Assembly: GCA_041674765.1 (NCBI GenBank)
Contig: JBAYVE010000002.1
Coordinates: forward strand, 113,467-177,466
Direction of reading: 5' to 3'
From: Patescibacteria group bacterium
GTDB lineage: Bacteria; Patescibacteriota; UBA1384; XYA2-FULL-43-10; 1-14-0-10-43-13
Length of the DNA: 64,000 nt
Position 1 is the stretch's first letter. The number at the start of each line of letters is the position of its first letter. Shown here in pieces: positions 19,671-61,017 of the stretch. A program made the position numbers and the translations under genes. The notes beneath the pieces are model-generated. The model was not told the origin of the DNA. It worked only from the letters and a program-made list of their open reading frames with translations, and searched no databases.

Positions 19671-19802
19671 AAGTAGTTGTATCTGAGATTGAAAGGGGGG
19701 GTATTTTATTGTATGATTAGCATGCAAAGAGACCGGTTAATTTTGGATTTTGCATACAACTATTATATAGATCCCGGTTTTGCCGGGAACGATAAGGAAC
19801 AA

Positions 19803-22742
19803 ATGTTTAAAGAAATTGATTCAAAGATGAATTTGCCCAAGGTCGAGGAAGAAATCCTTGATTTTTGGGATATGGGTAAAACATTTGAGAAATCTATTGA
19901 AAATCGCAAAGATGCCAAATTATATAGCTTCTATGACGGGCCGCCTTTTGCGACCGGAACTCCTCACTATGGCCACATTGTAGCCAGCACGATGAAGGAT
20001 GTTGTGCCAAGATATTGGACGATGAAAGGAAAAAGAGTAGACAGAGTTTGGGGCTGGGATTGCCATGGTTTGCCGATCGAAAATATTGCCGAAAAAGAGC
20101 TCGGATTTACGCATAAGAAAGAAATTCTGGATCTGGGGGTAGAAAAATTTAACGCAGTTTGCCGCTCAAAAGTTTTGGGCTATGTTTCCGAGTGGGAAAA
20201 AGTTATCCGGCGGCTTGGGCGCTGGGCCGATATGAAAAATGCCTACAAAACGATGGATCTCTCCTATATGGAGTCTGTCTGGTGGGTGTTTAAGCAGCTT
20301 TGGGACAAAGGGTTAATATATGAAGGATACCGTTCGATGCATATATGTCCCCGTTGCGAAACCACACTTTCGCAATCAGAAGTTAGTGAAGGCTATAAGA
20401 CAGTTAAGGATCTTTCTGCGATTGCCAAATTTGAAATGGTAGATGAGCGATCGACTTACTTTCTGGCTTGGACCACAACACCTTGGACATTGATTGGCAA
20501 TGTTGCATTGGCGGTTGGTCGGGATATCGATTATGTAAAAATCGAAACTCAAAATGAAGACGGGAAAATAGAAAACTATATCATGGCCAAAGATCGGTTG
20601 AAAGATGTAATGAAGGAGCGAGAATACCGGGTTGTAGATAATTATACTGGTCTTAATCTGGTTGGCCGGGCATATGAGCCACTTTTTGATTATTATATAA
20701 AAAAGCCAGGCCTTCTGAATAAGGAAAATGGCTGGAAAACAGTCACTGCAGACTTCGTGACTACTGAAGAGGGGACTGGTATTGTCCATATCGCTCCGGC
20801 TTTTGGTGAAGATGATATGGCTTTGGGCAAGGACCAAAACCTGCCGTTTATTCAACACGTGGGAATGGATGGTGTTATTAAACCTGAAGCCGGTGAATTT
20901 GCCGGTATGCACGTCAAAGATATTGAGGATAACCAAAAAACCGATATTGAAATTATAAAATACCTTGCGAAGAAAGAACTGCTTTTCTTCAAAGAAAAAT
21001 ACGAGCACTCTTATCCGCATTGTTGGCGCTGTGATACGCCGCTTCTAAATTATGCTACTTCCTCCTGGTTTGTCGCAGTTACCAAGGTAAAAGAGGATGC
21101 TTTGGAATTGGCCAAGGAGATCAATTGGTCGCCAAAACATATCAAGGAAGGTCGTTTCGGCAAGTGGCTTAAAGGCGCCAGAGATTGGTCTATTAGCCGC
21201 CAGCGCTTCTGGGCTTCAGTCATTCCGATTTGGAAATGCGATAAATGTGGAGAGATGAAGGTTTTCGGATCAGTCGCCGAATTGGAAGATCTAAGCGGTC
21301 AAACTATTTCGGATATTCATAAGGATACCGTTGATAAAATTATCTTTCCTTGTCAAAAGTGCGAGGGCCGGATGAAGAGGATTCCAGACGTGCTCGATAC
21401 CTGGTTTGATTCAGGTTCGATGCCTTATGCCCAGCTTCACTATCCTTTTGCAAATCAGGAAAAATTTGAGCAGACTTTCCCGGCTGATTTTATTGCTGAA
21501 GGACAAGACCAGACAAGAGCCTGGTTTTATTATTTGCATATTATCGCCACCGCAATTCAGAAAAAAGTGGCTTTCAAAAATGTCGAGGTCAACGGAATTG
21601 TTCTGGCGGAAGACGGCAAGAAGATGTCCAAGAAATTGCAAAATTATCCCGATCCTACGCTGATGTTTGACAAATATGGCGCTGATACAATGAGACTTTA
21701 TCTTCTGACTTCGCCTGTAATGCAAGCGGAAAATCTGAATTTCAAGGAAGCCGATATGGCCGAATTGTCCAGAGGCATCTTCCGGATGCTTTGGAACTCT
21801 TATTCCTTTTTCACTCTCTATGCGAATATAGATCGCTGGACACCAGCTCAAAGTCAAAAGTCAAAAGCCAAAAGCCTGAATTTGCTAGACCGTTGGATTA
21901 TTTCTGAATTAAATACCTTAATTCTTGAAGTGGATAAGTCCATGGAGAGCTATGAATTGATGAAGGCGTCCCGTCTTTTTCAGCCGTTTATCGACAACTT
22001 ATCAAACTGGTATATTCGCCGCTCGAGAAAGAGATTTTGGAAGTCAGAAAATGACGGAGACAAAGAAAATGCATACCAAACTCTCTGGACGGTGCTCGTT
22101 GAACTGTCGAAATTGATGGCGCCATTTACTCCATTTGTCGCAGAGGAAATATTCAAAAATCTGACAGGCAAGGAGTCTGTTCATCTGGAAAATTATCCTT
22201 CGGCTGATCAAGAAATGATTGATAATGATTTGAATTTGGCTATGGCGGAGACCAGGAAAGTGGTTGAACTCGGCCTATCTGCTAGAGCACAAGAAAGAAT
22301 TAAAGTCCGTCAACCGCTAAAGTCATTACAATATTCCGGGAGAAAATTAGAATCTGAGCTAGAGTCAATTATCGCGGAAGAAGTCAATGTTAAAGAGATT
22401 GTTCATATCGATGAAAGCAAGGATGCCCCGGGGCTAACGGTCGGCTTAGACTATAGCATTACAAAAGAGCTAAAACTCGAGGGATATGCCCGGGAAATCA
22501 TCAGAAATATTCAATCTTTACGTAAAGAAAGCGGATTCAACGTTGCCGATAGGATTTGCGTTTATTACAAGACTGATTCTGCGGAAATTGGAAAAACGTT
22601 TGAAAACTTCAGTAGTCTGATTGCTCATGAAGTTCTGGCAAATGAGATAATTGCTGGTTTGCCGGAAAAAATAGAAGGACGGCAGTTATTCAAAATTGAT
22701 GGCGAAGAAATATTGATTGGTTTAAACAGAGCTGCTAGATGA
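19803..22742 (+). CDS. ileS: isoleucyl-tRNA synthetase
   Basis: ATG at 19803 after AAGGAA. The conserved N-terminus begins MFKEIDSK…ILDFW. Carries the PHYGH and KMSKK motifs. The track ORF is extended 42 codons upstream with no RBS. Confidence 0.9.
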   Translation: MFKEIDSKMNLPKVEEEILDFWDMGKTFEKSIENRKDAKLYSFYDGPPFATGTPHYGHIVASTMKDVVPRYWTMKGKRVDRVWGWDCHGLPIENIAEKELGFTHKKEILDLGVEKFNAVCRSKVLGYVSEWEKVIRRLGRWADMKNAYKTMDLSYMESVWWVFKQLWDKGLIYEGYRSMHICPRCETTLSQSEVSEGYKTVKDLSAIAKFEMVDERSTYFLAWTTTPWTLIGNVALAVGRDIDYVKIETQNEDGKIENYIMAKDRLKDVMKEREYRVVDNYTGLNLVGRAYEPLFDYYIKKPGLLNKENGWKTVTADFVTTEEGTGIVHIAPAFGEDDMALGKDQNLPFIQHVGMDGVIKPEAGEFAGMHVKDIEDNQKTDIEIIKYLAKKELLFFKEKYEHSYPHCWRCDTPLLNYATSSWFVAVTKVKEDALELAKEINWSPKHIKEGRFGKWLKGARDWSISRQRFWASVIPIWKCDKCGEMKVFGSVAELEDLSGQTISDIHKDTVDKIIFPCQKCEGRMKRIPDVLDTWFDSGSMPYAQLHYPFANQEKFEQTFPADFIAEGQDQTRAWFYYLHIIATAIQKKVAFKNVEVNGIVLAEDGKKMSKKLQNYPDPTLMFDKYGADTMRLYLLTSPVMQAENLNFKEADMAELSRGIFRMLWNSYSFFTLYANIDRWTPAQSQKSKAKSLNLLDRWIISELNTLILEVDKSMESYELMKASRLFQPFIDNLSNWYIRRSRKRFWKSENDGDKENAYQTLWTVLVELSKLMAPFTPFVAEEIFKNLTGKESVHLENYPSADQEMIDNDLNLAMAETRKVVELGLSARAQERIKVRQPLKSLQYSGRKLESELESIIAEEVNVKEIVHIDESKDAPGLTVGLDYSITKELKLEGYAREIIRNIQSLRKESGFNVADRICVYYKTDSAEIGKTFENFSSLIAHEVLANEIIAGLPEKIEGRQLFKIDGEEILIGLNRAAR

Positions 22743-24480: not shown

Positions 24481-25092
24481 ATGGCATTGAAAGTCAAAAG
24501 TGAGGACGAAAACGTGCAAACAGAGAAAAAGGAAGAAGGGAAGAAATTCCTTACTTTAAAGCAGACAGGTGAGCGTAATTGGTATGTAATACATACTTAT
24601 TCTGGCTACGAAGAACAGGTTGCCGACTCTCTTAAACAGAGAATTGAATCTCTTGGTATGCAAGAGAAGATATTCGATGTGATTGTTCCTAAAGAAAAAC
24701 AGATCGAGATCAAGAATGGCAAACGCAAAATTGTCGAGAAAAAAATATATCCCGGCTATGTGCTTGTTGATATGATCGTCACAGATGACTCCTGGTACGT
24801 TGTAAGAAATACACCAAATGTGACAGGTTTTATCGGTTTCGGTGTTAGACCTACACCAATGTCAAAAGAGGAAATCGATCGTATCAAAAAGCGGATGGGT
24901 GTAGAAGAGCCGAAATACCAGGTTGATCTTACTGTCGGAGATCTTGTAAAGATCAATGATGGGGCGTTGAAGGGTTTTGAGGGTAAAATTGAAGAAGTTG
25001 ATCACAACAAAGGCAAGGTTAAAGTCTTGGTAAATATGTTCGGCAGAGAAACTCCGGTAAATTTAGATTTCTTGCAAGTTAATAAGATATAA
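24481..25092 (+). CDS. nusG: transcription termination/antitermination factor NusG
   Basis: An NGN domain (NWYVIHTYSGYE) and a KOW domain (GDLVKINDGALKGFEG). Confidence 0.9.
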   Translation: MALKVKSEDENVQTEKKEEGKKFLTLKQTGERNWYVIHTYSGYEEQVADSLKQRIESLGMQEKIFDVIVPKEKQIEIKNGKRKIVEKKIYPGYVLVDMIVTDDSWYVVRNTPNVTGFIGFGVRPTPMSKEEIDRIKKRMGVEEPKYQVDLTVGDLVKINDGALKGFEGKIEEVDHNKGKVKVLVNMFGRETPVNLDFLQVNKI

Positions 25093-25101
25093 ACAATAAT
25101 T

Positions 25102-25140
25102 AAAATTCGAAATCCTAAATTCGAAATCCGAAACAAGTTC
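25102..25140. repeat. AAATTYGAAATCC repeat element (intergenic copy)
   Basis: aaaattcgaaatcctaaattcgaaatccgaaacaagttc. A near-identical copy sits in-frame inside dus at 34728-34765. Confidence 0.6.
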
Positions 25141-25210
25141 TAGATGAAATTTAAAAATTGTTTCGAATATCGTGCTTCTAATTTAGCGCTTCCGAGTATA
25201 ACGAGGTAAC

Positions 25211-25636
25211 ATGGCAAAAGCAATAAAAGCAATTATAAAATTACAGTGTCCGGCTGGGAAGGCAAATCCTGCTCCTCCTGTTGGTCCTGCTTTGGGTCAG
25301 CATGGTGTGAATATTATGGAGTTTTGCCAACAGTTTAACGAAAAGACCAGAGAAAAGGGTGATACAATCATCCCTGTGGAAATCACCGTATATGAAGACC
25401 GTACTTTCTCCTTCATTATGAAACAGCCCCCGGCAGCAATCTTAATTTTGAAGGCACTCGGAATCAAATCCGGATCTGATAATTCCAAAAAGAAGAAAGT
25501 CGGAAAACTAACTCAGGCTCAGCTTGAAGAGATCGCAAAAGCCAAAATTGAGGATTTGAACGCAAATGACGTTGAAGCCGCAAAGAAGGTTATTGCAGGG
25601 ACTGCCAGAAGCATGGGTATTGAGATCGAAAAATAG
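25211..25636 (+). CDS. rplK: 50S ribosomal protein L11
   Basis: [38 protein letters not shown] is a canonical L11 sequence. Confidence 0.95.
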
Positions 25637-31201: not shown

Positions 31202-31295
31202 TTTTTTGGAATTTCTAGATGCAGATCCCTCGGCAGGTTTTCAACCGCTCGGGACGACAGAGGCGCTGCGATTTCTAAACAAATCCTAATGACCG

Positions 31296-31445
31296 TGATT
31301 CCAAAAACCTTGCTATTACCCTGTTTATTATTGTTCGAGGAGGAACGACGAGAACTTTGGTCATTTGTTAGTATGGTGACAGACTTCTCATTTTTAAGAG
31401 CACCATTCGAAGAATAAATACATTTGATGGGTTTTAGGGAATTAC
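31296..31445 (-). mobile_element. MITE-like 150-bp repeat element, copy A (inverted relative to copies B and C)
   Basis: The reverse complement matches copy B (35687-35838) nearly base-for-base, including gttctcgtcgttcctcctcgaacaata. The ends are tgattccaaaaacc and gggttttagggaat. Confidence 0.6.
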
Positions 31446-31526
31446 TGCCAATGATTTAATTTCTAGATGACAAAATCTGAGTTTAAAAATTGAATAAAAA
31501 TTAAGAATTAAAAATTAATAATTTTA

Positions 31527-32126
31527 ATGTTGCCAACAAGTATCCAAAATCTAATCGATGAGTTCTCAAAACTTCCGGGAGTAGGGCCGAAAAGTGCGGC
31601 AAGACTGACCTTTTATCTGCTTACCAAGCCAAAAGGCGATATAGAGCAGCTTGGCAGTTCTGTTTTAAATTTGGCTCGGAATTTGAAATATTGTAAAGAG
31701 TGTTTTAATATTTGCGAAAACGATCTTTGTCAGATTTGTGCCGATGATCGTCGGAACCACCAGATTGTGATTGTTGTAGAAGAGCCTCTTGATGTTTTGG
31801 CGTTGGAAAAATCGGGCGGAATAGACGGAATTTACCATGTTCTTGGAGGCGTGATTTCTCCGATTAATGGCATCGGTCCGGATGATCTACGTATCAGTCA
31901 GCTCCTCGACCGGCTCGACGAAAGTGAAGATTTGGAAGTAATTTTGGCCACCAATCCAAACCTAGAAGGTGAAGCGACCGCAACTTATGTTAAAAACAAA
32001 ATTGCAGCATTGGGCAAAAATATCAAAATCACCAGAATCGCCCGGGGATTGCCTATCGGTGGTGATCTCGAATATGCCGATCAGGTCACTCTGAAACGAT
32101 CTCTCGAAGGAAGACGCGAATACTAG
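31527..32126 (+). CDS. recR: recombination protein RecR
   Basis: Has a helix-hairpin-helix (PGVGPKSAARL), a C4 zinc finger (CKEC…CQIC) and a Toprim domain. Confidence 0.9.
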   Translation: MLPTSIQNLIDEFSKLPGVGPKSAARLTFYLLTKPKGDIEQLGSSVLNLARNLKYCKECFNICENDLCQICADDRRNHQIVIVVEEPLDVLALEKSGGIDGIYHVLGGVISPINGIGPDDLRISQLLDRLDESEDLEVILATNPNLEGEATATYVKNKIAALGKNIKITRIARGLPIGGDLEYADQVTLKRSLEGRREY

Positions 32127-32357
32127 ATCCACCTTCGGTGGAATTTTTAAGTCCTAATTTCTAATTTTTAATCAAATTATAATTAAAAAATTAAAAATTC
32201 AATAAAAATTAAGAACTAAAAATTAAGAAATTATTTCGCATCAGACAAGCAAAAGCAATGCGCTAAATAGTTGGGGATAAGTTTACTTGACATTACCGAA
32301 AAATCACCGCTAAAATCGTTTAGTTAGCTTAAAATTAAAAACAAAAAAAGAGGTCAA

Positions 32358-32724: not shown

Positions 32725-34074
32725 ATGAAATTTTTTAACACTTTGAGTTCGAAAATCGAAGAATTTAAACCGATGAATCCGAGCGAGGTTACGATGTACA
32801 CTTGCGGACCTACAGTCTATGATTCGGTCCATATTGGCAATCTGCGTGCCTACGTTTTTGTTGACCTTCTAAAAAGAGCCCTGATTGCCGAAGGCTACGG
32901 AGTGAAACACGTAATGAATATCACCGATGTTGATGATAAGACCATAAGGAAATCGGATGGCAAAAGGGATAAGATTAAATCTTTGACGAAGAAATATGAG
33001 GATAAATTTTGGCAAGATTTCGATGAATCGAACAATATCCGACCCGATGTTGTAACGCGGGCGACTGAGTATGTGGAGAAAATGATTGTTTTCATCGAGG
33101 AATTGATTAAAAAAGGTTTTGCCTACAAAGCTACTGACGGCTCGGTATATTTTTCGATTGCTAAATTCACGGATTACGGTAAATTGGCAAAGTTGGATTT
33201 GTCAGAGCTAAAATCTGGTGCCAGAGTGGCCCAGGATGATTATACAAAAGAGAATCCTGCCGACTTTGTCCTTTGGAAAGCCTGGGACGAAAAAGACGGC
33301 GAAATCTTCTGGGATTCTTCTTTGGGTAAGGGCCGTCCTGGCTGGCATGTCGAATGCTCTGTTATGTCTACTGATGTCCTAGGGCCAACTATCGATATCC
33401 ATGCCGGTGGCATTGACCTTGTTTTTCCCCATCATGAAAATGAGATTGCACAATCAGAAGCCAAATCAGGTCAGAAGTTTGTCAACTTTTGGGTGCATAA
33501 TGAGCATCTACTGGTTAGCGGACAGAAGATGTCCAAGAGTTTGTCTAATTTTTACACGCTGGATGATATCAGGGAAAAAGGATTTTCAGCACTTGATTTC
33601 CGCTACTATGCTCTTGGCGCTCATTACCGTTCCAAGATGAACTACACTTGGGAAGGAATTGAGGGGGCTAAAAATGCGAGAGAGAGGCTGATGCGTTTGG
33701 TTGCGGGAATGAAAAGTCATAACGGCAAGGTTATTCAAAAGTATCTATCACAATTTAATGAAAAAATCTTTGATGATTTGAATGTTCCGGAGGCATTGGC
33801 GATTCTTTGGGAACTTGTTCGAGATGCTGAAATCCAACCTGAGAATAAACTTACGACAATTCTGGAGATGGACAAAGTTCTAGGATTGAACCTAGGTAAA
33901 AAACAGGAACCAGAAGTAATTCCGGCCGAGATCATTAAATTGGCGGATGAGCGTAAACAAGCTAGAAATGATAAAAAATTTGGCAGATCAGATGAGATAC
34001 GGGAAGAAATGCTAGAAAAGGGTTGGAGAGTAGAGGACTTGGCTAATAATAATTATAAGATAGTTAAAGCATAA
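32725..34074 (+). CDS. cysS: cysteinyl-tRNA synthetase
   Basis: AAGGAG RBS. Carries the CGPTVYDSVHIGN (HIGH) and KMSKSLSN motifs. Confidence 0.9.
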   Translation: MKFFNTLSSKIEEFKPMNPSEVTMYTCGPTVYDSVHIGNLRAYVFVDLLKRALIAEGYGVKHVMNITDVDDKTIRKSDGKRDKIKSLTKKYEDKFWQDFDESNNIRPDVVTRATEYVEKMIVFIEELIKKGFAYKATDGSVYFSIAKFTDYGKLAKLDLSELKSGARVAQDDYTKENPADFVLWKAWDEKDGEIFWDSSLGKGRPGWHVECSVMSTDVLGPTIDIHAGGIDLVFPHHENEIAQSEAKSGQKFVNFWVHNEHLLVSGQKMSKSLSNFYTLDDIREKGFSALDFRYYALGAHYRSKMNYTWEGIEGAKNARERLMRLVAGMKSHNGKVIQKYLSQFNEKIFDDLNVPEALAILWELVRDAEIQPENKLTTILEMDKVLGLNLGKKQEPEVIPAEIIKLADERKQARNDKKFGRSDEIREEMLEKGWRVEDLANNNYKIVKA

Positions 34075-34176
34075 AGCTTAAAGCGAAAAGCATAAAGCCT
34101 AAAGCCGAAAGCGAAAAGCTTAAAGCATAAAGCAGAAAGCATAAAGCATAAAGCAGAAAGCATAAAGCATAAAGCG
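34064..34176. repeat. heptamer/nonamer tandem array (NNAAAGC)n, left arm of an inverted repeat flanking the four-helix-bundle gene
   Basis: ttaaagcataaagcttaaagcgaaaagcataaagcctaaagccgaaagc…cataaagcataaagcg. The array starts inside the cysS 3' end. A partner array with reversed polarity lies at 34541-34569 (ggctttcggctttgagctttttgcttta). Confidence 0.6.
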
Positions 34177-34182
34177 ATTGTG

Positions 34183-34536: not shown

Positions 34537-34576
34537 TGGAGGCTTTCGGCTTTGAGCTTTTTGCTTTAAACTTATT

Positions 34577-35626
34577 ATGAATTTTTGGAAAGATGTTGAT
34601 AGACCAATCAAAGTTCTCTCACCGATGGCCGGATATACCGACTCGGCTTTTCGTGTTCTGTGCCGCGAATTTGGCGCTGATGTGGTGATCACGGAGCTGA
34701 TTTCTGCAGATGCTATAGCCTACGGCAAATTTGAAATCCAAAATTTGAAATCCGAAACAAATTCTAATTCTAAAATTCAAAAACTAAATCAAACAATAGT
34801 TACAGGAAAAAATACTTCTACGGCGGAGATGTTATCTTTTTGCGAAGAAGAACGGCCTTTGGTGGTCCAATTATTTGGAAAATATCCAGCAAAATTTGGC
34901 ATAGCGGCTAAATGGGTTACTGAAAATTTAAAGCCAGATGGGATCGATATCAATATGGGTTGTCCCGCTAGAAAAGTGGTCAATTCTGATCATGGCGCAG
35001 CATTGCTAAAAAATCCTGATTTAGCTATCGAAATTGTAAAAGCAGTGAAGGAAAATACCGATTTGCCGGTCTCTGTCAAAACAAGACTTGGCTGGGACAA
35101 TGACGACCAAATTCTAGAGTTCGCGCCGAAACTCGCCAGCGCGGGGATTGACGCTTTGATTGTTCATGGGCGAACCTATAAAGATGGGTTCAAAGGGAAG
35201 GCTAGGTGGGAAAATATTTATAAGGTGAAAGCGTTGCTTCCGAATTTAACTGTAGTTGGCAACGGAGACATAGATTCAATTTTCAGTGTCATGCCCGTGA
35301 AGGCGGACCAGGAAAATAATGAATTGGATCCCCGGGTCAGGCCCGAGGATGACACTATTGGGCTGGACGGCTATGCCATCGGCCGAGCAACTTTTGGCAA
35401 GCCATGGATATTTTCGAAAGCTGAAGTTTCGAAAGACGAGTTGAAGGTGATAATTTTGCGGCATGCTAAACTTGTCTATCGAACAAAGGGTGATTATGGC
35501 ATGGTTGAATTTAGAAAACATCTCCTGGCTTATCTAAAAGATTTTCCAGGGGCTAAAGAGCTGAGGAAGAAAGCAGTTGCGATTAAAACACTTGATGAGG
35601 TTAAAGGAATTCTGGAATTGGTTTAA
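34577..35626 (+). CDS. dus: tRNA-dihydrouridine synthase with an in-frame repeat-derived insertion
   Basis: Flavin-binding TIM-barrel motifs are present (LSPMAGYTDSAFR…VQLFG…DINMGCPARKV…KTRLGWD). The segment YGKFEIQNLKSETNSNSKIQ is encoded by a copy of the AAATTYGAAATCC repeat. Confidence 0.85.
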   Translation: MNFWKDVDRPIKVLSPMAGYTDSAFRVLCREFGADVVITELISADAIAYGKFEIQNLKSETNSNSKIQKLNQTIVTGKNTSTAEMLSFCEEERPLVVQLFGKYPAKFGIAAKWVTENLKPDGIDINMGCPARKVVNSDHGAALLKNPDLAIEIVKAVKENTDLPVSVKTRLGWDNDDQILEFAPKLASAGIDALIVHGRTYKDGFKGKARWENIYKVKALLPNLTVVGNGDIDSIFSVMPVKADQENNELDPRVRPEDDTIGLDGYAIGRATFGKPWIFSKAEVSKDELKVIILRHAKLVYRTKGDYGMVEFRKHLLAYLKDFPGAKELRKKAVAIKTLDEVKGILELV

Positions 35627-35686: not shown

Positions 35687-35838
35687 GTCATTCCCTAAAA
35701 CCCTATTAAATGTATTTATTCTTCGAATGGTGCTCTTAAAAATGAGAAGTCTGTCACTGTATTAATAAATGACCATAGTTCTCGTCGTTCCTCCTCGAAC
35801 AATAAGAAACAGGGAAATAGCAAGGTTTTTGGAATCAC
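35687..35838 (+). mobile_element. MITE-like 150-bp repeat element, copy B
   Basis: Begins immediately after the dus stop. The termini are cgtcattccctaaaacc and ggtttttggaatca. It shares an internal core with copies A and C. Confidence 0.6.
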
Positions 35839-39949: not shown

Positions 39950-40975
39950 ATGGATCTAAGAGAACGACTCTCACAACTCAAAGCGATTCTTCAAATCGAT
40001 GCAAAGAAGACTGAAATTCATAAACTCCAGGCGGAAATGAATCAGCCCGGATTTTGGCTCGATGACAAAACCGCCGGTCAAGTCAGCCAGAGACTAAAAA
40101 ATCTACTGCAGGAAGTGGAGCCTTTTGATGACTTATATGATTTAGCTCAAATTTCCTCTCTTCAGGAACTTGAAGTCTTAAGGCCTGAAATCGAAAAATT
40201 GGAGATCCTAGCTCTGCTCTCGGAAAAATATGACCAAAACAATGCCATAATCAATTTCTATGCCGGCGCGGGTGGGGTAGATGCGCAGGACTGGACCGAA
40301 ATGCTCCTTCGGATGTATCTTAGGTTTGCGGAAGAGAATGGTTTCAAAAGTAACATCATCGATGAAACCAAGGGGACGGAGGCCGGTATAAAGAGTGCGA
40401 CTGTTGAAATTACCGGACCTTATGCCTACGGTAAATTGAGAGGGGAATCTGGCGTTCATCGGCTGGTCCGCCAATCACCATTTAACGCAAAATCCTTGCG
40501 TCAGACTTCATTTGCGCTAGTCCAAATTTTCCCCGAAGTAGAATCTTCAGCAGAAGTTAATATTGATCAGAAGGATCTTCGAATTGATGTGTATCGTGCA
40601 GGCGGACATGGCGGGCAGTCTGTCAATACGACCGATTCAGCTGTTAGAATTACTCATATTCCGACTGGGATTGTTGCTACCTGTCAAAACGAAAGAAGTC
40701 AGTTGCAGAATAAAGAGATGGCCATGAAGATACTACGTTCCAGATTGGCTAAATTGATGCTAGAGCAACACAAAGAGAGAATAGAGGAGTTAAAAGGGGA
40801 TTACTCCGCCCCTGAATGGGGAAACCAAATTAGATCTTATGTCTTGCATCCATATAAAATGGTTAAGGACCATCGCACCGGGTATGAATCAAAGAATCCA
40901 GATGCAGTTCTAAATGGAGAAATAAGCGGGTTTATTGAAGCAGAGCTTAAACAAGCAGTAAGTAGTAAGCAGTAA
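39950..40975 (+). CDS. prfB: peptide chain release factor 2 (uninterrupted ORF, no programmed frameshift)
   Basis: Carries the SPF (QSPFNAK) and GGQ (GGHGGQSVN) motifs. The 3' end (SSKQ*) is encoded by an AGTAAGC heptamer array at 40955-40980. Confidence 0.85.
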   Translation: MDLRERLSQLKAILQIDAKKTEIHKLQAEMNQPGFWLDDKTAGQVSQRLKNLLQEVEPFDDLYDLAQISSLQELEVLRPEIEKLEILALLSEKYDQNNAIINFYAGAGGVDAQDWTEMLLRMYLRFAEENGFKSNIIDETKGTEAGIKSATVEITGPYAYGKLRGESGVHRLVRQSPFNAKSLRQTSFALVQIFPEVESSAEVNIDQKDLRIDVYRAGGHGGQSVNTTDSAVRITHIPTGIVATCQNERSQLQNKEMAMKILRSRLAKLMLEQHKERIEELKGDYSAPEWGNQIRSYVLHPYKMVKDHRTGYESKNPDAVLNGEISGFIEAELKQAVSSKQ

Positions 40976-41039
40976 GCAGTATCGGCCAGAGGCCGACCGG
41001 CCTTTAATCATAGCAATAAGTAATTGCATCGGAGGGGAT

Positions 41040-41858: not shown

Positions 41859-42164
41859 ATGGTTGATTTGGGAAAGATGAAGGATCTCTACGCATTACAG
41901 AAAAAGGCTAGACAGATCCAAAAAGAATTAAAAAACGTCGAAGTTGAAGCATCTAGTAACGATGGCTGGGTTACTGTAGTTTTCAATGGAGAACAGCATC
42001 TTACTGAAATTAATTTGGCAGAAGAAGCGCTCCGACCTGAAAACAAGAGAGAACTCGAAAAAGATCTGAAAAATTCAATCTCCCAGGCTATTTCAAGGGC
42101 TCAAGCAGTCGCAGCTGAAAAGATGAAAGATATTGCAGGGGGAATGGGAATACCGGGACTTTAA
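41859..42164 (+). CDS. ybaB: nucleoid-associated protein YbaB/EbfC
   Basis: 101 aa with the typical YbaB pattern (DLGKMKDLYALQKKARQIQKEL…GGMGIPGL). The last codons lie inside the 69-bp repeat. Confidence 0.85.
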   Translation: MVDLGKMKDLYALQKKARQIQKELKNVEVEASSNDGWVTVVFNGEQHLTEINLAEEALRPENKRELEKDLKNSISQAISRAQAVAAEKMKDIAGGMGIPGL

Positions 42165-42316
42165 GACCCAGCTACCCTAAAGTCCCCATACGAATTACGA
42201 ATGTACGAATCTTACGAATGCTGAAGGAAACTATTTGTTGGATTTAGTACCGGGACTTTAAGACCCAGCTACCCTAAAGTCCCCATACGAATTACGAATG
42301 TACGAATCTTACGAAT
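42151..42316. repeat. two identical 69-bp direct repeats (42151-42219 and 42248-42316), each a 9-bp-stem hairpin plus (TACGAAT)x4
   Basis: taccGGGACTTTAagacccagctacccTAAAGTCCCcatacgaattacgaatgtacgaatcttacgaat is present twice, separated by 28 bp. Confidence 0.8.
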
Positions 42317-42332
42317 ATAATTTTCCTAAAAT

Positions 42333-42430
42333 GTCATCCTCGGGCAGGCAACGCCATGACCCGGGGATCCAATTCCTTATACTGGATTCCAGCCCGCCAG
42401 CTGGCGGATCAAGCTCCAGTCTGGAATGAC
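42333..42430. repeat. GTCATCC-type palindromic repeat element (copy 1)
   Basis: gtcatcctcgggcaggcaacgccatgacccggggatccaattcc…cgccagctggcg…tggaatgac. The termini gtcatcc and ggaatgac are inverted repeats. There is an internal 12-bp perfect palindrome. Confidence 0.6.
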
Positions 42431-54129: not shown

Positions 54130-54279
54130 TGATTCCGAAAACCCTAATAAACGTATTTATTCTTTAAATGGTGCTCTTAAAAATGAGAACTTCTGTCACT
54201 GTACTAATAAGTGACAGAAGTTCTCGTCGTTCCTCCTCGAACAATAAGAAACAGGGAAAGGGTAAGGTTTTCGGAATCA
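54130..54279 (+). mobile_element. MITE-like 150-bp repeat element, copy C (perfect 14-bp TIRs)
   Basis: Begins 14 bp after the giant-gene stop. The 5' TIR is tgattccgaaaacc and the 3' TIR is ggttttcggaatca. There is an internal perfect hairpin (CTTCTGTCACtgtactaataaGTGACAGAAG). Confidence 0.65.
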
Positions 54280-54564
54280 CGTTTGATGATTATTGACAGC
54301 TTACTTAAATTATGATAAATTAATAGAGTCCAAAGACCACTAGCCTTCGCTAAAACTACAGCCGGCAAACCAGCCCGGATAGCGATAGAAGTCTTGTGCA
54401 GGAATTCCGTTAGTATAGAGTAAATATTATTGATATATGTCTATCAGCATTCTGCTGCCATCATATACAATAAATTTTATACTTTCTTGATTTCTGCGCT
54501 AGTCGCAGATTTTTTTAAATAGAGTCACAAAAAAGTAACGAAATTTACGAAAGTAAAGGAATTC

Positions 54565-55083
54565 ATGGCAAAAACAAGAGAGAAAAAAGAGGAATTGATT
54601 GCTAGATTAGAAGAGGAAATTTCTGGTGCCAAAGCTGCAGTGTTAGTTGACTACAAAGGTCTGAAAGTCAAAGAAACTGAGGATTTGAGGAACGCTTTGC
54701 GTGAGAAGGGCATTAGTTTCAATGTTGCTAAAAACTCCTTGGTTAAAATCGCTTTAAAGAAAAATGGGATTACTTTTGAGGAAGGTATCTTCAAAAAACC
54801 TATTGCGATCGCTTTTGGCAAAAACGATGAGGTTGCCGCTGCAAAAGAGATAGATCTTTTCGCAAAGAAACATGAGGCCATGGAAATTCTTGGCGGAATT
54901 CTTGAAAAGAAGATGATTGATGCTGAAATGGTCAAGAAATTAGCTTCCTTGCCATCACGCGAAGAGCTTTTGGCCAAAATGGTCGGATCGATCGCTTCAC
55001 CACTATCCGGCATGGTCAACGTTCTTGCCGGCAATCTTCGGGGTTTGGTCAACGTGTTAAAAGCTGTAAACAACAAGCAGTAA
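54565..55083 (+). CDS. rplJ: 50S ribosomal protein L10
   Basis: MAKTREKKEELIARLEEEISGAKAAVLVDYKGLKV is a canonical L10 sequence. Confidence 0.9.
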   Translation: MAKTREKKEELIARLEEEISGAKAAVLVDYKGLKVKETEDLRNALREKGISFNVAKNSLVKIALKKNGITFEEGIFKKPIAIAFGKNDEVAAAKEIDLFAKKHEAMEILGGILEKKMIDAEMVKKLASLPSREELLAKMVGSIASPLSGMVNVLAGNLRGLVNVLKAVNNKQ

Positions 55084-55103
55084 TCTTATAAACTGAGTAT
55101 AGT

Positions 55104-55144
55104 GTCATTCTCGGGCAGGCAACGCCATGACCCGGGAATCCAAT
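55104..55144. repeat. GTCATCC-type palindromic element (copy between rplJ and rplL)
   Basis: gtcattctcgggcaggcaacgccatgacccgggaatccaat. Confidence 0.5.
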
Positions 55145-55181
55145 ACATTAGGTTAATTAAAAACGTTTAATAAGGAGAATC

Positions 55182-55667: not shown

Positions 55668-55794
55668 TATAATATTAATAGTCTTTTTACATCCTTTCTT
55701 TTGTCATTCTTGGGTTTCATTCCTCCCCTTTTCGAGGGGAGGTTAGGTGGGGTTTATTGAATTTCAATACCTTGTATTAGTTGCTTGCAAATAA

Positions 55795-55842
55795 GGAATT
55801 GGATCCCCGTGTCATGGCTGCCGCCTGCCCGAGGATGACACT
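55795..55842. repeat. GTCATCC-type palindromic element (reverse orientation, between rplL and tgt)
   Basis: ggaattggatccccgtgtcatggctgccgcctgcccgaggatgacac is the reverse complement of the copy-1 core. Confidence 0.55.
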
Positions 55843-55871
55843 ATTGAGAAGACCAATTAAAAATTTACAAA

Positions 55872-57206
55872 ATGTCTTTTAAATTAATCAAAAAATTAGA
55901 TAACGGTACCCGAATCGGGGAACTGGCGACGCCTCATGGTAAGATTGAGACGCCCTTTTTCATGCCGGTTGGAACTGTCGGCAGCGTGAAATCGGTTTCG
56001 CCGAATGAATTAAAAGAGCTAGGTTCAGAGATCATACTTAGTAATACTTATCATTTGTACTTGCGACCAGGGGAGAAACTGATCAAGGATTTTGGCGGAC
56101 TCCACAAATTTATGAGATGGGATCGGCCAATCCTTACAGACTCTGGGGGATACCAAGTTTTTTCTTTGGCAAGAGGGGACAACCATAATAAGAATGTCAT
56201 TTATGGTTCTGTCATTCCCGCGGAGGCGGGAATCCAGAAGACCAAGGAATTGGATCCCCGGGTCACCGTTCGACCCCGAGCGACTCACGGTCGAGGGGAG
56301 CCCGAGGATGACACCATTATTAGGGACAGCAAAAGGGGTCTTGTCAAAATTACCGAGGAAGGTGTGGAATTTAAATCATTTCTCGATGGCAGCAAACATT
56401 TTTTCACTCCTGAGAAAGTTATCCAAATTCAGCTTGATCTGGGCGTCGATATTCTGATGCCGCTAGATGTTTGTCCGAGCGGCAAAGCAACTCGAAAAGA
56501 AGTGGAAGAATCGGTTCGATTAACTATTTTATGGGCAAAAAGAGCAAAAGAATATTTTGATTGCAAGATACAAGAAACAAGAGACAATAATCAAAAAAAT
56601 AACAATACAACAATAAAACAATATGACAATCGACCTCTTCTTCATGGTATCGTTCAGGGTGGTTTATATGAAGATTTAAGAAGAGAGTGCGCCAAAGAAC
56701 TTATCAAATTGGACTTCGATGGCTATTCGGTCGGCGGATTGGCTGTTGATCATGAAACAAGGGATATGTGGGAGACGGTAAAACTGATGGGGGAGATATT
56801 GCCTCAGGATAAACAAAGGTATCTGATGGGTGTCGGTACACCGGATGATATTATAAAAGCTACAGAATTAGGCATGGATATGTTTGATTGTGTCTTGCCG
56901 ACACGTTTGGCGAGACACGGAAATGTGTATGTCAGAGCAGAAAGCCAAAAACAAAAAGCTAAAAATATTAACCTATATGAACTCATTAACCTCCTCAAAT
57001 CCGAATATCGAACCGATAGGGGAGTGATAGATGAAAATTGTGGCTGTGAAGCTTGCCAGAAGGGAACGGGTTTCTCAAAGGCCTACATTTCCCATCTAAT
57101 TCGTTCAAATGAGATTTTAGGGCTCAGACTTGCGACGTTGCACAATCTCTATCAATATCTGGAGCTTATGAGAGAACTCGGTTGGAGAGTGGAACGGGGA
57201 AAGTAG
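55872..57206 (+). CDS. tgt: queuine tRNA-ribosyltransferase carrying an in-frame repeat-element insertion
   Basis: Conserved Tgt blocks are present (FMPVGTVGSVK, PILTDSGGYQVFSL, YLMGVGTPDD, CxCxxC zinc site). An extra ~45-aa segment (…NVIYGSVIPAEAGIQKTKELDPRVTVRPRATHGRGEPEDDTII…) is encoded by a GTCATCC-type element. Confidence 0.85.
   Translation: MSFKLIKKLDNGTRIGELATPHGKIETPFFMPVGTVGSVKSVSPNELKELGSEIILSNTYHLYLRPGEKLIKDFGGLHKFMRWDRPILTDSGGYQVFSLARGDNHNKNVIYGSVIPAEAGIQKTKELDPRVTVRPRATHGRGEPEDDTIIRDSKRGLVKITEEGVEFKSFLDGSKHFFTPEKVIQIQLDLGVDILMPLDVCPSGKATRKEVEESVRLTILWAKRAKEYFDCKIQETRDNNQKNNNTTIKQYDNRPLLHGIVQGGLYEDLRRECAKELIKLDFDGYSVGGLAVDHETRDMWETVKLMGEILPQDKQRYLMGVGTPDDIIKATELGMDMFDCVLPTRLARHGNVYVRAESQKQKAKNINLYELINLLKSEYRTDRGVIDENCGCEACQKGTGFSKAYISHLIRSNEILGLRLATLHNLYQYLELMRELGWRVERGK
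56211..56316. repeat. GTCATCC-type palindromic element inserted in-frame inside tgt
   Basis: gtcattcccgcggaggcgggaatcc…ggaattggatccccgggtcacc…gggagcccgaggatgacacc. It includes an 8-bp perfect hairpin (ATTCCCGCggagGCGGGAAT). Confidence 0.6.
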
Positions 57207-57284
57207 AATGTAGAGAGTGGAATGTAGAATGGGGAGTGTAGAGCGTAGAATGTAGAACGTAGAATGGGGGGTGTGGAACGGGGC
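57187..57284. repeat. G-rich GTAGAATG/GGAATG tandem repeat (second copy of the 121-190 family)
   Basis: gagtggaacggggaaagtagaatgtagagagtggaatgtagaatggggagtgtagagcgtagaatgtagaacgtagaatggggggtgtggaacgggg. It starts within the last codons of tgt. Confidence 0.55.
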
Positions 57285-57389
57285 ATGTTCATCTGTGGAT
57301 TAGCCTTGACAGTCTTCTCTAGTTGCTTGATAATTGAATTAGCGATAGTCCAATCAATTCAAAGCATCATTTTTAAAATTTGGAGGAAG

Positions 57390-58766
57390 ATGACAAATAG
57401 TGCCGAACAGCAAGCGCCAGCCGAAGCGCGGCAAGCTGAGGCTGAGCAACAAGCACCTCAGATGACTCCCGAACAGCAACTGGCAGCCAATCGATCCACT
57501 GTATTGCAGAAGTCGCGGCAGGAAGCAGGATTTCTAAACTTCTTAACGAAAGCTTCAAAAGCTGCCGGAAATCTTGAGAAAGGTGGCGTTTTAGCTGAAG
57601 GTAGTGCAGAAGATTTAGAGGGATATATCCAGAAATATGAGCAGGTCAAGGAAGTTACAAAAGACCTCTCGGACGTTTATGAAAAGTCTATCTTCAAGGG
57701 GGTCGGCAAGATACCAAATGAGGCAAAGGCGAAAATTGTCGAATATTTAAATGAGTTGGCAATCAACGATGGATCAGAGTTTCAAAGAATCACCCAAGAT
57801 GTCAAAGATTTCAAGCAATTAGAAGGAGCTATCGGTCAGCAAGAAAAAGAACTTGAGAAATATGGTGATCTTGAAAAAATAAGAGAGGAAAGAGAGAAAT
57901 CGGATTCTGCCGCACAGGAGAAAGAGGCAGAGTTGGAGGCACTCAGGAGCGAGCGAGAAGAAAATGGTGACCTTTACGCTGGTGCCTCTATAAAAGTTGG
58001 TTGGATAAAGAAGAGAGATACTGATCCTGATGAGGCCGCAAGGCTTGCAAAGCTTATCCAGGAAAACGATGGCAAAATCAAGGCAGTTAGCGGCGAACTC
58101 GAGGCTTTGCGAAAAAAATCCAATGATGCAGGGGAAGCGATTCAAAAAGCTAAGGATACAGATACGGAAAAGTCACAGTCTGAATTCCGCTATGATGTCT
58201 TGAAAAAACAATTTATCGAAGAGGTTGGCGTCGTCAAGGATTTGAAGAATATCGCTATCAAAACTGTTGAGGAGCGATGCAAGGCACAAGCCTATACGAC
58301 AGAGACTGTCCACAATGATGATACCGACGAAGACGAGGAAGTGACTGAATTATCTGAAGACTTTGATAGTCTGTCAGCCGCAGCCGCCCAATTCGAAAGG
58401 GTGGCGGATAATCAGGAGCTTGATGTCGCCGGTACTGGTGGAGCGACCGCGAAAGGCGCTAGGGAAACTTATAAGACTGTCTTTGAGCAGCTGAAAGCGG
58501 TTATGTCGCTGAAGGTTTCCGATACTGTTTCCAATACCTCCTTCACCATAGAAAGTAATCTTGGTCAGATGGAGAAGGCGCTTGGTAATTTCGTTAAAAA
58601 AACTGAGGGCAATCCAGGGCAGCGGGCAGAATTGATAAATGCGTTGAAGGATACCAGAAAAGAGATGGCAGGATCTATCCAAAAGAAAGAGGCGGTCACG
58701 GGCGAGGAACAGAAGCTGATGGCGCTCAATTTGATTATTGGTGATTTAGAGACAGGAGGTAAATAA
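57390..58766 (+). CDS. cytoplasmic Glu/Lys-rich coiled-coil protein (GC-rich island 2)
   Basis: The ATG at 57390 is preceded by GGAGGAAG. The track ORF begins 42 codons earlier without an RBS. Composition is GC-rich. Confidence 0.55.
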   Translation: MTNSAEQQAPAEARQAEAEQQAPQMTPEQQLAANRSTVLQKSRQEAGFLNFLTKASKAAGNLEKGGVLAEGSAEDLEGYIQKYEQVKEVTKDLSDVYEKSIFKGVGKIPNEAKAKIVEYLNELAINDGSEFQRITQDVKDFKQLEGAIGQQEKELEKYGDLEKIREEREKSDSAAQEKEAELEALRSEREENGDLYAGASIKVGWIKKRDTDPDEAARLAKLIQENDGKIKAVSGELEALRKKSNDAGEAIQKAKDTDTEKSQSEFRYDVLKKQFIEEVGVVKDLKNIAIKTVEERCKAQAYTTETVHNDDTDEDEEVTELSEDFDSLSAAAAQFERVADNQELDVAGTGGATAKGARETYKTVFEQLKAVMSLKVSDTVSNTSFTIESNLGQMEKALGNFVKKTEGNPGQRAELINALKDTRKEMAGSIQKKEAVTGEEQKLMALNLIIGDLETGGK

Positions 58767-59930: not shown

Positions 59931-60063
59931 GGGAATGACAAAGAAATAGGGGAATGACAGAAAGTCTGGGGAATGACAAAGAAAACAGGAGAATGACAAA
60001 AAAAGGGGGAATATCAGAGAAATATGGGAATAATAGAGAAATAAGGGAATAGTAGATAGACAG
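59931..60063. repeat. iteron-like array: seven ~19-bp direct repeats of GGGAATGACAAAGAAA decaying 5'->3'
   Basis: gggaatgacaaagaaatag / gggaatgacagaaagtctg / gggaatgacaaagaaaacag / gagaatgacaaaaaaag / ggggaatatcagagaaatat / gggaataatagagaaataa / gggaatagtag. It is preceded by the hairpin ATTCCCGCcttcGCGGGAAT and lies 105 bp upstream of the 60169 gene. Confidence 0.6.
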
Positions 60064-60168: not shown

Positions 60169-61017
60169 ATGAGGTTTTTATTCCTCTTAGTGTTGGCCGT
60201 CGCATTATTGTCGACGACGGCAGCGTGGGCAAGTGGCTCAACCATGCCCGCGCCGGACAAAAAAGGTGCCCCGTCGGCTTCGCTGAAAAAAGACGGAAGT
60301 ACCTATGAATTCCACTTCCATTTCGATGGCAGTGGAAATCGGCGTACTACCCGCCGTCAGCATTCGCAGCCCTCTGTGTCTCCTGCAACCACCCGGTCGC
60401 AGGAAGACAGCCAGAACAAAAACATCTCCCGTTTGGACAGCAATCAGCAGGAGATGGGGGCAGCGATCAATCAGCTCGCTGCCAATGACACCTCACAGAA
60501 TCAGGCGATTGCAGCTGGCCAGCAAAAAGACCAGCAGCAAGACAATCAAATCCAGGCGAATGAAAAAAAATTGGAGGAGAACATTATGCCGATGTGGGCA
60601 ATAATCTTAGGCCTTGTACTGCTGTTCTTGTTAGTTGCTGGCACGATCACATTCATGTGGATCCGTGCATCCATCGCTGGTAAGGCAGCAGCTGCGGCAA
60701 CACCGCCGCCGACTACTCCTGGCGATCCACCCCTGAACCCTCCGTTGCTCCCTGTCGATCTTAACCTCGACGGGATCAAGGAGGTCAACCCCGACGAAGT
60801 CATCAAAGCGAATTTCGCTTTGGATTACCGAAATGATAGGCTTCGAGGGGTTCGATTGAGCCTACGTCCGGGATCTGCGCCGGCTGAGTCCGCCTCGGAC
60901 CGCAGCGGAGGTGGAAATGTTATTAACAATAGCATTTTCCTGAATGGCGCGAAATCCCTCGGAGATGCTCTTCGGGGCGACGCGCCGGAGCCCGAGGCCC
61001 CTCCGCAAACATCTTAA
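60169..61017 (+). CDS. signal-peptide + mid-protein TM hypothetical protein, Gln-rich, Pro-rich linker (GC-rich island 2)
   Basis: GGAGG RBS. The signal peptide is MRFLFLLVLAVALLSTTAAWA. The internal TM is WAIILGLVLLFLLVAGTITFMWI. Confidence 0.55.
   Translation: MRFLFLLVLAVALLSTTAAWASGSTMPAPDKKGAPSASLKKDGSTYEFHFHFDGSGNRRTTRRQHSQPSVSPATTRSQEDSQNKNISRLDSNQQEMGAAINQLAANDTSQNQAIAAGQQKDQQQDNQIQANEKKLEENIMPMWAIILGLVLLFLLVAGTITFMWIRASIAGKAAAAATPPPTTPGDPPLNPPLLPVDLNLDGIKEVNPDEVIKANFALDYRNDRLRGVRLSLRPGSAPAESASDRSGGGNVINNSIFLNGAKSLGDALRGDAPEPEAPPQTS

Follow-up and report, generated by a model that had tools for sequence, protein, structure and literature searches.

The window analysed here is a 64,000-nt stretch (42% GC) of a 222-kb contig in a metagenome-assembled genome (MAG) from the Patescibacteria, the candidate phyla radiation (CPR), and all unprefixed positions below refer to it. 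It carries two closely matching sequences built of tandem heptamers, one in the spacer between nusG and rplK and one in frame inside dus, the gene of a tRNA-dihydrouridine synthase (Dus). We suggest that both are probably copies of one hairpin element, referred to below as the GAAATCC element, whose core recurs in about ten phyla. The features concerned are as follows.

24481–25092, plus strand: nusG (Pfam NusG/KOW), upstream of the spacer element.
25103–25136, plus strand: left A-rich arm of the spacer copy, AAATTCG AAATCCT AAATTCG AAATCCG AAACAA (left-arm profile, E = 5.5e-13).
25137–25157, plus strand: interior (loop) of the spacer copy, 21 nt, the shortest in the family (21 to ~140 nt), with a small inner stem in the minimum-free-energy fold.
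25158–25185, plus strand: right T-rich arm of the spacer copy, TTGTTT CGAATAT CGTGCTT CTAATTT, TTGTTTCGAATATCGTGCTTCTAATTT (right-arm profile, E = 3.9e-4).
25211–25636, plus strand: rplK, ribosomal protein L11 (Pfam Ribosomal_L11_N and Ribosomal_L11), downstream of the spacer element.
34577–35626, plus strand: dus, 349 aa, host of a half-element.
34727–34760, plus strand: left arm in dus, AAATTTG AAATCCA AAATTTG AAATCCG AAACAA, read as K51 FEIQNLKSET (left-arm profile, E = 8.1e-10).
34761–34790, plus strand: interior-proximal part in dus, ATTCTAATTCTAAAATTCAAAAACTAAATC, read as NSNSKIQKLN.
35320–35359, plus strand: second in-frame repeat in dus, NELDPRVRPEDDTI, residues ~248–261, unrelated to the first.

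The spacer copy AAATTCGAAATCCTAAATTCGAAATCCGAAACAAGTTC (25103–25140) starts 11 nt past the nusG stop codon and ends 71 nt 5′ of the L11 start. The dus copy AAATTTGAAATCCAAAATTTGAAATCCGAAACAAATTC (34727–34764) lies within the Dus open reading frame (ORF), where it is read as K51-F-E-I-Q-N-L-K-S-E-T-N-S-N-S-K-I-Q. The two are identical at 34 of 38 positions, so the pair described in the original prediction, together with its reading frame in dus, stands, with coordinates shifted by no more than 1 nt. A degenerate 38-mer with up to three mismatches found just these two sites in the window and none in 100 dinucleotide shuffles. The 13-mer on which the original prediction had based a repeat family could be traced, with up to one mismatch, to four window positions, all inside the two copies, but the true unit turned out to be a discrete 34-nt arm. 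A gapped alignment with two small gaps widens the similarity to 25103–25157 versus 34727–34783 (~55 nt). Tandem Repeats Finder reports periods of 7 and 14 at 25103–25133 and a period of 14 at 34727–34757 and 34759–34788; both copies thus consist of head-to-tail 7-nt units, as do heptanucleotide simple sequence repeats of the TAACTGA type or of the short tandemly repeated repetitive (STRR) type. A left-arm profile made from copies in other genomes matches both sites. There is no third copy in 80.7 kb of the source contig. Moreover, each copy is nearer to the cross-phylum consensus than to its partner, and the idea of a repeat family spreading within this genome is therefore not upheld.

The spacer copy (25103–25185) is a complete, compact element with both arms. 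Its hairpin, CGAAACAA/TTGTTTCG, folds at –19.3 kcal/mol (z = –3.2, better than 199 of 200 shuffles), and the GTGCTTC signature of its right arm is also present at loci L049, L114, L116, and L002. The copy is not part of an overlooked gene, a possibility that would have undermined the original prediction: the 118-nt spacer holds just a 21-codon ORF (25144–25209) without support, and relatives of the hairpin lie between genes in many genomes. Where genome GC is low, the element frequently starts 0–26 nt past the stop of a gene in the same orientation, as in the window spacer, L012, L025, L045, L096, and L114. We considered known regulatory features for the spacer. No terminator-like site was found in 24900–25400, CGAAACAA/TTGTTTCG having a 21-nt loop and no T-run, and promoter-like matches in the spacer are at background level. 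Rfam 15 gave no match at gathering score in the window or on the element in 18 loci; at E values up to 10, the spacer yielded chance-level matches only.

To define the element, GTDB (one genome per species) was scanned for the exact 27-nt core AAATTYGAAATCCNAAATTYGAAATCC, which is present in at least 123 copies at at least 119 loci. Among the matches listed, the core occurs in Patescibacteria, Planctomycetota, Acidobacteriota, Nitrospirota, Verrucomicrobiota, Desulfobacterota, Chloroflexota, Bacteroidota, Gammaproteobacteria, and WOR-3, about ten phyla in all. These cross-phylum occurrences are real. Their flanks vary in GC content between 0.34 and 0.71 (median 0.59), while the arm itself is at 0.32. 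The 5′ boundary is sharp in 116 of the 123 listed copies, with no extra heptamer upstream of the four-unit core; this is an exact four-unit array and not an open-ended one of variable unit number. Thirty of the 123 go on as xAAACAA, often as GAAACAAATTC, and this continuation, common to copies, is non-repetitive, unlike a simple heptamer array. A full element begins with a 34-nt A-rich arm, (AAATTCG AAATCCG)x2 AAACAA, followed by a variable interior of 21 to ~140 nt that usually starts ATTC.AAA, and ends with a T-rich arm, made of TTGTTT and then four heptamers of the CGRATTT type, frequently with a non-complementary GTGCTTC unit among them. At the listed loci, this inverted partner lies downstream in about 15 clean full hairpins. 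Full-size members have stems of about 34 bp; stems of the clean hairpins are 79% Watson–Crick paired, with folding energies of about –37 to –70 kcal/mol for the complete elements. With 34-nt terminal inverted arms around a short non-coding interior, the element resembles a miniature inverted-repeat transposable element (MITE).

In one Planctomycetota MAG (MFD04716.bin.2.187), the heptamer core forms part of a longer repeat (>190 nt) that is dispersed between genes, with at least 20 copies among the loci fetched (L003, L014, L016, L021, L029, L033, L043, L046, L048, L075, L080, L085, L095, L099, L101, L102, and L120). Inverted pairs ~4.7 kb apart in this high-copy genome might suggest a link to a transposase, but at the two loci examined they enclose ordinary genes (MurJ, peptidase M64). 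Phage carriage was likewise rejected, with two exact matches in 2.9 million viral contigs. We found no relevant paper on the motif strings of the element in the literature searched.

The host of the second copy is a member of the Dus family (PF01207, E = 1e-70, 238.6 bits versus a cut-off of 20.4), with PDB matches down to 1e-39. It shares 84 invariant columns with 37 Patescibacteria homologues (all ≤68% identical to it), keeps all family-invariant residues, and has an AlphaFold2 model with a mean predicted local distance difference test (pLDDT) score of 86.6. The copy in dus (34727–34790) consists of the A-rich arm and ~30 nt of interior. It is unstructured: the plus strand of dus has no match to the right-arm profile, and the RNA fold is no better than shuffles (z = –1.1). 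The stretch runs AAATTYGAAATCC...GAAACAAATTC and is translated as KFEIQNLKSETNSNSKIQKLN, and its interior piece resembles GAGACAAATTCTAATACCGAAATTCAAAAG of L017 and the recurrent AAAATTCAAA of other copies.

The original prediction held that this segment has no counterpart in canonical Dus proteins. This is true of distant solved structures: against Thermotoga maritima Dus (1vhn), residues 48–82 of our protein face chain residues 43–49, giving ~28 extra residues. It is not true of the Patescibacteria homologues, as all 37 have a variable segment between SADAIAYGKF and KNxSTAELLSF. In addition, the first repeat-encoded residues, GKFE[IV], are conserved in P0003, P0004, P0011, and P0078 (homologues are numbered P), and P0004 encodes KFEV by different codons, AAGTTCGAGGTA; the 5′ end of the repeat hence coincides with ancestral coding sequence. 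In the AlphaFold2 model, a strand at residues 53–58 is followed by a low-confidence tip (residues 61–70, mean pLDDT 52) and a strand at 69–75. The model thus places the repeat peptide in a surface β-hairpin, where it would make up the first strand, the tip, which is disordered, and a portion of the returning strand. Taken together, the alignment and the model indicate a clade-wide surface hairpin with an ancestral first strand, for the tip of which this genome uses repeat DNA, and not a canonical Dus interrupted by a repeat.

The same loops of related Dus proteins also carry repeat DNA. We retrieved five Dus homologues by exact look-ups and compared the DNA of four orthologues with the window dus (five genes in all). 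Alignment search for metagenome Dus was of no help for the loop question, as matches listed were at 31–41% identity only. P0011 (65% identity) shares the element with the window dus, including its site and frame; a GC-rich hairpin splits this copy. P0011 is the sole orthologue that shares the longer peptide, and it encodes it with the same element DNA, so that the condition set with the original prediction, the same peptide made from unrelated DNA, does not refute it. Loop 2 of P0029 contains the family's hairpin in complete, miniature form, SISNLEYRNTKQIQSTKDENSNNFRISDLEFRISP. In P0032, loop 1 contains (TCAGTTA/TCAGTTG)x4, and loop 3 contains (AAGTATC)x3 plus another GGAACAAATTTCAAATAAATTCGAAATC piece, while the array of P0004 is degenerate and of the GTAGAAA type. 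Taking the five genes together, identity at lag 7 is 0.43 in the variable loops versus 0.24 in the conserved core (Fisher's exact test, P-value = 3e-32), and lag 7 exceeds lags 6, 8, and 9 in four of the five. As a separate observation, the piece that splits the GAAATCC element in loop 1 of P0011 (L121, 2314–3432) is 44 nt long, GC-rich and hairpin-like, TCTTCGACAAGCTCAGATCGCCCTGAGCAACAGTCGAACGGGCG, and is itself read in frame as SSTSSDRPEQQSNGR; this loop is a nested repeat insertion.

The second in-frame repeat of the window dus (35320–35359) copies a GC-rich palindrome found between genes, GAATTGGATCCCCGGGTCA...CCCGAGGATGACAC, and has a frame-neutral internal deletion of 12 nt. The intergenic palindromes aligned with it span 42310–42390, 55080–55160, 55778–55858, and 56228–56300 (repeats D13, D14, I5, I9, and I12), within which the copies themselves lie as follows.

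42316–42379: intergenic palindrome copy.
55087–55150: intergenic palindrome copy.
55783–55850: intergenic palindrome copy.
56234–56265: intergenic palindrome copy.

The region of the second repeat in Dus is of low confidence in the model (residues 241–253, pLDDT <50). With this repeat and its 12-nt deletion beside the first one, the general idea that conserved genes of this genome carry repeat DNA in frame is right.

An array (AAATTCGAAATCCG)n can be seen from its sequence alone to be free of stop codons in all six frames, and its sense translation is hydrophilic. All three sense frames yield the cyclic peptide KFEIRNSKSEIRNP, and the antisense frames yield RISDFEF-type peptides. At least nine of the 123 listed exact copies are in frame in Pfam-confirmed genes.

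IleRS-type (isoleucyl-tRNA) synthetase, sense: L004 and L087, at the same site in both.
LeuRS (leucyl-tRNA synthetase), sense: L081 and L109, at the same site in both.
GT1 glycosyltransferase, sense: L047, NGVDINKFEIRNSKSEIEERKK.
ATP synthase delta, sense: L008, C-terminal tail.
HAD hydrolase, antisense: L022, GFQISDFEF.
Sua5/TsaC, antisense: L032, GFQISDFKF.
Protein sorted by the type IX secretion system (T9SS), antisense: L060, SDFEFRISNF.

The three antisense hosts belong to other phyla. The sense hosts in other CPR genomes, GT1 of L047 and IleRS of L004 and L087 among them, carry the element in the phase seen in Dus and yield closely similar peptides. Near-identical peptides appear in three unrelated CPR proteins, Dus (KFEIQNLKSETNSNSK), LeuRS of L081 (KFEIRNSKSETNSKSQ), and the ATP synthase delta tail of L008 (KFEILNSKSETNLNVQ); the element therefore occurs both between genes and as in-frame fusions with a conserved peptide in unrelated conserved genes, in the manner of Rickettsia palindromic elements (RPE). 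LeuRS of L109 aligns with Thermus thermophilus LeuRS without gaps, NVKFEILNSKSEINVYTTR against EILFPVEGKEVRIPVFTTR, which indicates that the exact 27-mer replaced a LeuRS segment of equal length, and LeuRS of L081 has 10 additional residues at the same hairpin. In both Dus and LeuRS, the start of the element coincides with ancestral KF-type codons. The original prediction spoke of small repeats that colonise coding sequence in frame; repeat-derived in-frame DNA is indeed present, but at least one host, LeuRS of L109, shows replacement with no change in length and not insertion. Comparison of the array translation with 5.8 billion proteins returned 13 short hypothetical ORFs only, a census that is uninformative because short embedded matches cannot reach significance.

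We therefore consider it more likely than not (probability ~0.6) that the spacer and dus sequences are copies of one discrete, heptamer-built hairpin element, with the dus copy as a tolerated passenger and not a functional Dus module. Element DNA would have been copied into the Dus loop by a patch-like event, either gene conversion or template switching. Pre-existing GKFE[IV] codons (AAR TTY GAR RTN) are similar to the 12 nt at the start of the arm and may have seeded the copying. Persistence in dus may then be due to a stop-free, hydrophilic sequence in a tolerant loop, with a single arm that forms no mRNA hairpin; its sequence and fold are as reported above. If ORFs keep just those copies that are stop-free, hydrophilic, and non-hairpin, this would explain the prevalence of single arms in coding sequence.

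Several observations weigh against this reading. No empty/filled site pair is available among close relatives, the nearest Dus being only 68% identical, so that the copying event and its boundaries are inferred rather than observed. Two copies in 80.7 kb fit a spreading selfish repeat poorly. The flanks of the listed full copies show no direct repeats that would mark a target-site duplication, although duplications of 1–2 nt would escape notice without empty sites, and no transposase lies beside or between copies at two loci examined in MFD04716.bin.2.187. The spacer copy, if it has a role, would most likely serve as a 3′-end or processing hairpin between the nusG and rplK transcripts, but its stem is short (8+5 bp) and lacks a U-tract, which makes a role as terminator or RNase III substrate weak. 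Strand asymmetry, a possible sign of an RNA-level stem, is too weak to be used (34 G.T versus 24 A.C mismatches). Finally, the near-perfect conservation of 27–34 nt across phyla, including synonymous positions, suggests constraint at the DNA or RNA level, which a passenger does not explain.

For this last reason, and because copy number is low here and neither an evident target-site duplication nor a transposase or viral carrier has come to light, we keep a nucleotide-level function as the main rival, unlikely as we hold it to be. The element would then be a conserved binding or processing motif for a widespread factor, as parS, Chi, and uptake sequences are, and both window copies would be under selection. 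The exact conservation over ~ten phyla in flanks of 0.34–0.71 GC agrees with this, as does its extension to synonymous positions in IleRS, LeuRS, Dus, and Sua5. Most genomes have few copies, the right arm repeats the same T.G mismatch in the outermost heptamer along with the conserved GTGCTTC unit, and in low-GC genomes the element is often found to start 0–26 nt past a co-oriented stop codon. However, we found no candidate factor and no Rfam family match, and the genomic contexts are mutually unrelated. Coding copies are cut at different points and lie in both orientations, which argues against one defined unit, and the dozens of copies within a longer dispersed repeat of one Planctomycetota genome are typical of selfish amplification.

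One could also expect heptamer arrays to grow in place, with slippage of the ancestral KFEI codons AAATTTGAAATC producing a microsatellite-like tract whose likeness to other copies is convergence; we regard this as quite improbable. KFE[IV] is indeed ancestral, and both odd units of the dus copy share a C-to-T change (AAATTTG twice), as local duplication or homogenisation would give. Strong self-similarity in the whole window occurs at lags 7, 14, and 21 only, lag-7 periodicity is uniquely enriched in this genome (41 windows versus none at lags 5, 6, 8, 9, and 10), and heptamers are the commonest long simple sequence repeats of bacteria, for which slippage of the polymerase has been held responsible (Mrazek 2007, in the summaries of PMC4679880 and PMC4692102). 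But slippage cannot make the non-repetitive continuation GAAACAAATTCTAAT..AAAATTCAAAAA, which the spacer copy and copies of other phyla have in common, the arm is fixed at four units in 116 of 123 listed copies, unlike a microsatellite, and a lone 14-nt duplication would shift the reading frame. Transposition of the full hairpin into the dus loop as a classical MITE, by a transposase acting on the 34-nt inverted arms and with later loss of the T-rich arm, fits the anatomy (conserved inverted arms, variable interior, sharp ends, unrelated flanks), the complete in-frame mini-hairpin in loop 2 of P0029, and the documented in-frame fusions of RPE and MITEs (PMC10969869), but is made very improbable by the lack of an evident target-site duplication and of a transposase (none adjoining or between copies at the two loci of the high-copy genome), the two viral matches, the length-neutral replacement in LeuRS of L109, and the position of the element start on ancestral codons in Dus and LeuRS.

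Our preferred reading, a hairpin element with tolerated coding copies, can be compared with known systems. RPE are palindromic repeats that have become in-frame parts of metabolic genes unrelated to one another (Ogata et al. 2000, reviewed in PMC10969869). Like them, the GAAATCC element is small and palindromic, is found both between genes and in frame in unrelated housekeeping genes, leaves a recognisable peptide, and sits where the fold tolerates it, here a surface β-hairpin. Unlike RPE, it has arms of tandem heptamers, spans ~ten phyla instead of one genus, is low-copy in this genome, and enters coding sequence mostly as a single arm, once by length-neutral replacement (L109); there is no sequence relationship. 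Given its heptamer construction and the phyla of its hosts, the element is unlikely to belong to any of the ten RPE families described from Rickettsia. RPE are the closest functional counterpart, and heptamer repeats (STRR, GGGAATC, TAACTGA) the closest structural relatives.

Cyanobacterial STRR heptamers were reportedly described by Mazel in 1990. Like the STRR and TAACTGA repeats, the GAAATCC element consists of tandem 7-nt units, is mostly intergenic, and recurs in distant phyla without a known vector. TAACTGA direct repeats are found in Beggiatoaceae, Cyanobacteria, and Bacteroidetes and recur in distant phyla (MacGregor 2015, PMC4679880). Within ORFs they occur in the stop-free orientation only, encoding for example LSVISYQ in a variable surface loop of an RpoC-like protein, and their arrays mostly sit directly 5′ of start codons, with no fold predicted for them (PMC4679880). 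Copies of our element within ORFs are likewise stop-free and in variable surface regions, and the Dus loop of P0032 carries the TAACTGA family itself (TCAGTTA, peptide LSVVSYQLS). In view of MacGregor's prior findings (PMC4679880), the concept of heptamer repeats in ORFs is not new. But where TAACTGA forms open-ended direct repeats, the GAAATCC element has a fixed four-unit arm, the unique continuation GAAACAAATTC, and an inverted partner, by virtue of which it forms a hairpin.

The element is also short and non-coding, with inverted arms, hairpin potential, and a location between genes, frequently near the 3′ end of the upstream one, as are MITEs and repetitive extragenic palindromic (REP) sequences and bacterial interspersed mosaic elements (BIME), among them Correia elements, enterobacterial repetitive intergenic consensus (ERIC) sequences, and REP with their associated tyrosine transposase (RAYT). 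RNase III processing is known for Correia elements (PMC10969869). In contrast to these, no target-site duplication was found in the flanks of full copies, and no parent insertion sequence or RAYT-like gene at two loci of the high-copy genome; the arms are heptamer arrays, and conservation across phyla goes far beyond known MITE families. Finally, 23S rRNA intervening sequences (IVS), with or without an ORF for the intervening-sequence protein (IVP, PF05635), share the long stem and the variable or ORF-bearing loop within a transcript. The GAAATCC element differs from IVS in lying outside rRNA and away from IVP genes, and its spacer stem (8+5 bp) is too short for a typical RNase III substrate, for which ~20 bp or more would be expected. 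What appears to be new is this family, its form as a discrete hairpin whose 34-nt arms are conserved, the range of phyla that it spans, and its part in building loops of CPR housekeeping enzymes.

An IVP gene does lie close to our locus. A 23S_rRNA_IVP/four-helix-bundle gene (PF05635, 34180–34536) is wedged between cysS and dus, with (TAAAGCA)x16 upstream (34064–34179) and an inverted array downstream (34542–34567); relatives keep the recR-x-cysS-dus synteny without it. Together with ten further loci (L041, L091, L209–L216), all 11 IVP genes examined are bracketed by short-period arrays, mostly of 7 nt, and the arrays are mutually inverted in nine of 11 (the window gene and eight of the other ten). 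The array unit varies between cassettes and is matched within a cassette. These genes represent five phyla, with hosts in CPR, Acidobacteriota, Cyanobacteria, Bacteroidota, and Azospirillum, and several are wedged between cas genes. We found no paper on a link between IVP genes and heptamer arrays in the literature searched. The link holds for other heptamer units and not for the GAAATCC family: we rejected the idea that the element is a satellite of IVP genes, since such a gene is present at two of the 119 listed loci, both times >3 kb away. A long GTACTCA/GTACTTA/GAACTCA array was also seen just past the window end (L208 14908–15002, equal to window coordinates 65076–65170); its GTACTCA is the unit flanking the IVP gene in acidobacterial L041, a heptamer thus common to distant phyla.

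The bracketing of IVP genes by inverted arrays supports a wider, though doubtful, proposal in which heptamer-armed hairpins constitute one undescribed cross-phylum class of elements, comprising ORF-bearing IVP (Avd-like) cassettes and ORF-less short hairpins such as GAAATCC. If this were true, the stem would let the element sit harmlessly in operons, rRNA, and protein loops, whether by excision or processing at the RNA level or by retention of a single arm in ORFs. Recognition or propagation of the arrays would fall to the four-helix-bundle protein or to some other conserved factor, and the sharing of heptamers (GAAATCC, TAACTGA, GTACTCA, GGGAAAA, and others) between distant phyla would be explained.

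Other repeats were noted in the window. A ~145-nt repeat has three copies, 87–93% identical and each downstream of a gene, at 31295–31442 (minus strand), 35694–35838 (plus), and 54132–54281 (plus). The first two form an inverted pair around the 4.2-kb recR-cysS-IVP-dus block; the repeat has a weak consensus fold, no covariation, and no Rfam match. Within this block, recR (31527–32126) lies between direct copies (31483–31524 and 32191–32232; 90% identical) of a 42-nt AT-rich heptamer array, TTAAAAATTGAATAAAAATTAAGAA... Two arrays of the GTGGAAT/GTAGAAT family, which the loop-1 array of P0004 Dus resembles, are 57 kb apart (117–185 and 57184–57284), and the latter spans the junction of the TGT gene (55872–57206) and the next ORF (57264–58766). 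Two more arrays are coding. At 21845–21880, (AAAGTCA)2(AAAGCCA)(AAAGCCT) is in frame in a 1021-aa class I aminoacyl-tRNA synthetase ORF (19677–22742) and encodes AQSQKSKAKSLN within a linker before the DRWI motif. At 40947–40984, (AAGCAGT)x4 covers the 3′ end and stop codon of prfA (39950–40975), so that the C-terminus of the release factor is array-encoded. Between a YbaB-family gene and pth lies a perfect 69-nt direct repeat (42151–42219 and 42248–42316) with TACGAAT-type array ends. Upstream of an ORF at 60169–61017, a tandem array of 19-nt period, GGGAATGACAAAGAAATAG, runs for ~6 copies (59931–60056) and adjoins a TGTCATTCCCGCGGAGGCGGGAATC palindrome.

Records of heptanucleotide repeats in bacteria go back to 1990, yet we know of no account of what makes them or what they do. 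On the reading we favour, one heptamer family is a discrete element with fixed 34-nt arms and not a loose microsatellite. Its nearly unchanged sequence from Patescibacteria to Planctomycetota and Acidobacteriota calls for a transfer mechanism or a conserved partner, and IVP genes with their inverted heptamer arrays offer an entry to the origin of such arrays and their tolerance in operons. For annotation and alignment, low-complexity inserts with recurrent KFEIRNSKSE or RISDFEF peptides should be taken as repeat DNA and not as homology. Overall, we suggest that element DNA builds lineage-specific surface loops of essential enzymes (Dus, LeuRS, IleRS, Sua5) and contributes to variation in protein length within the small, streamlined genomes of CPR bacteria.

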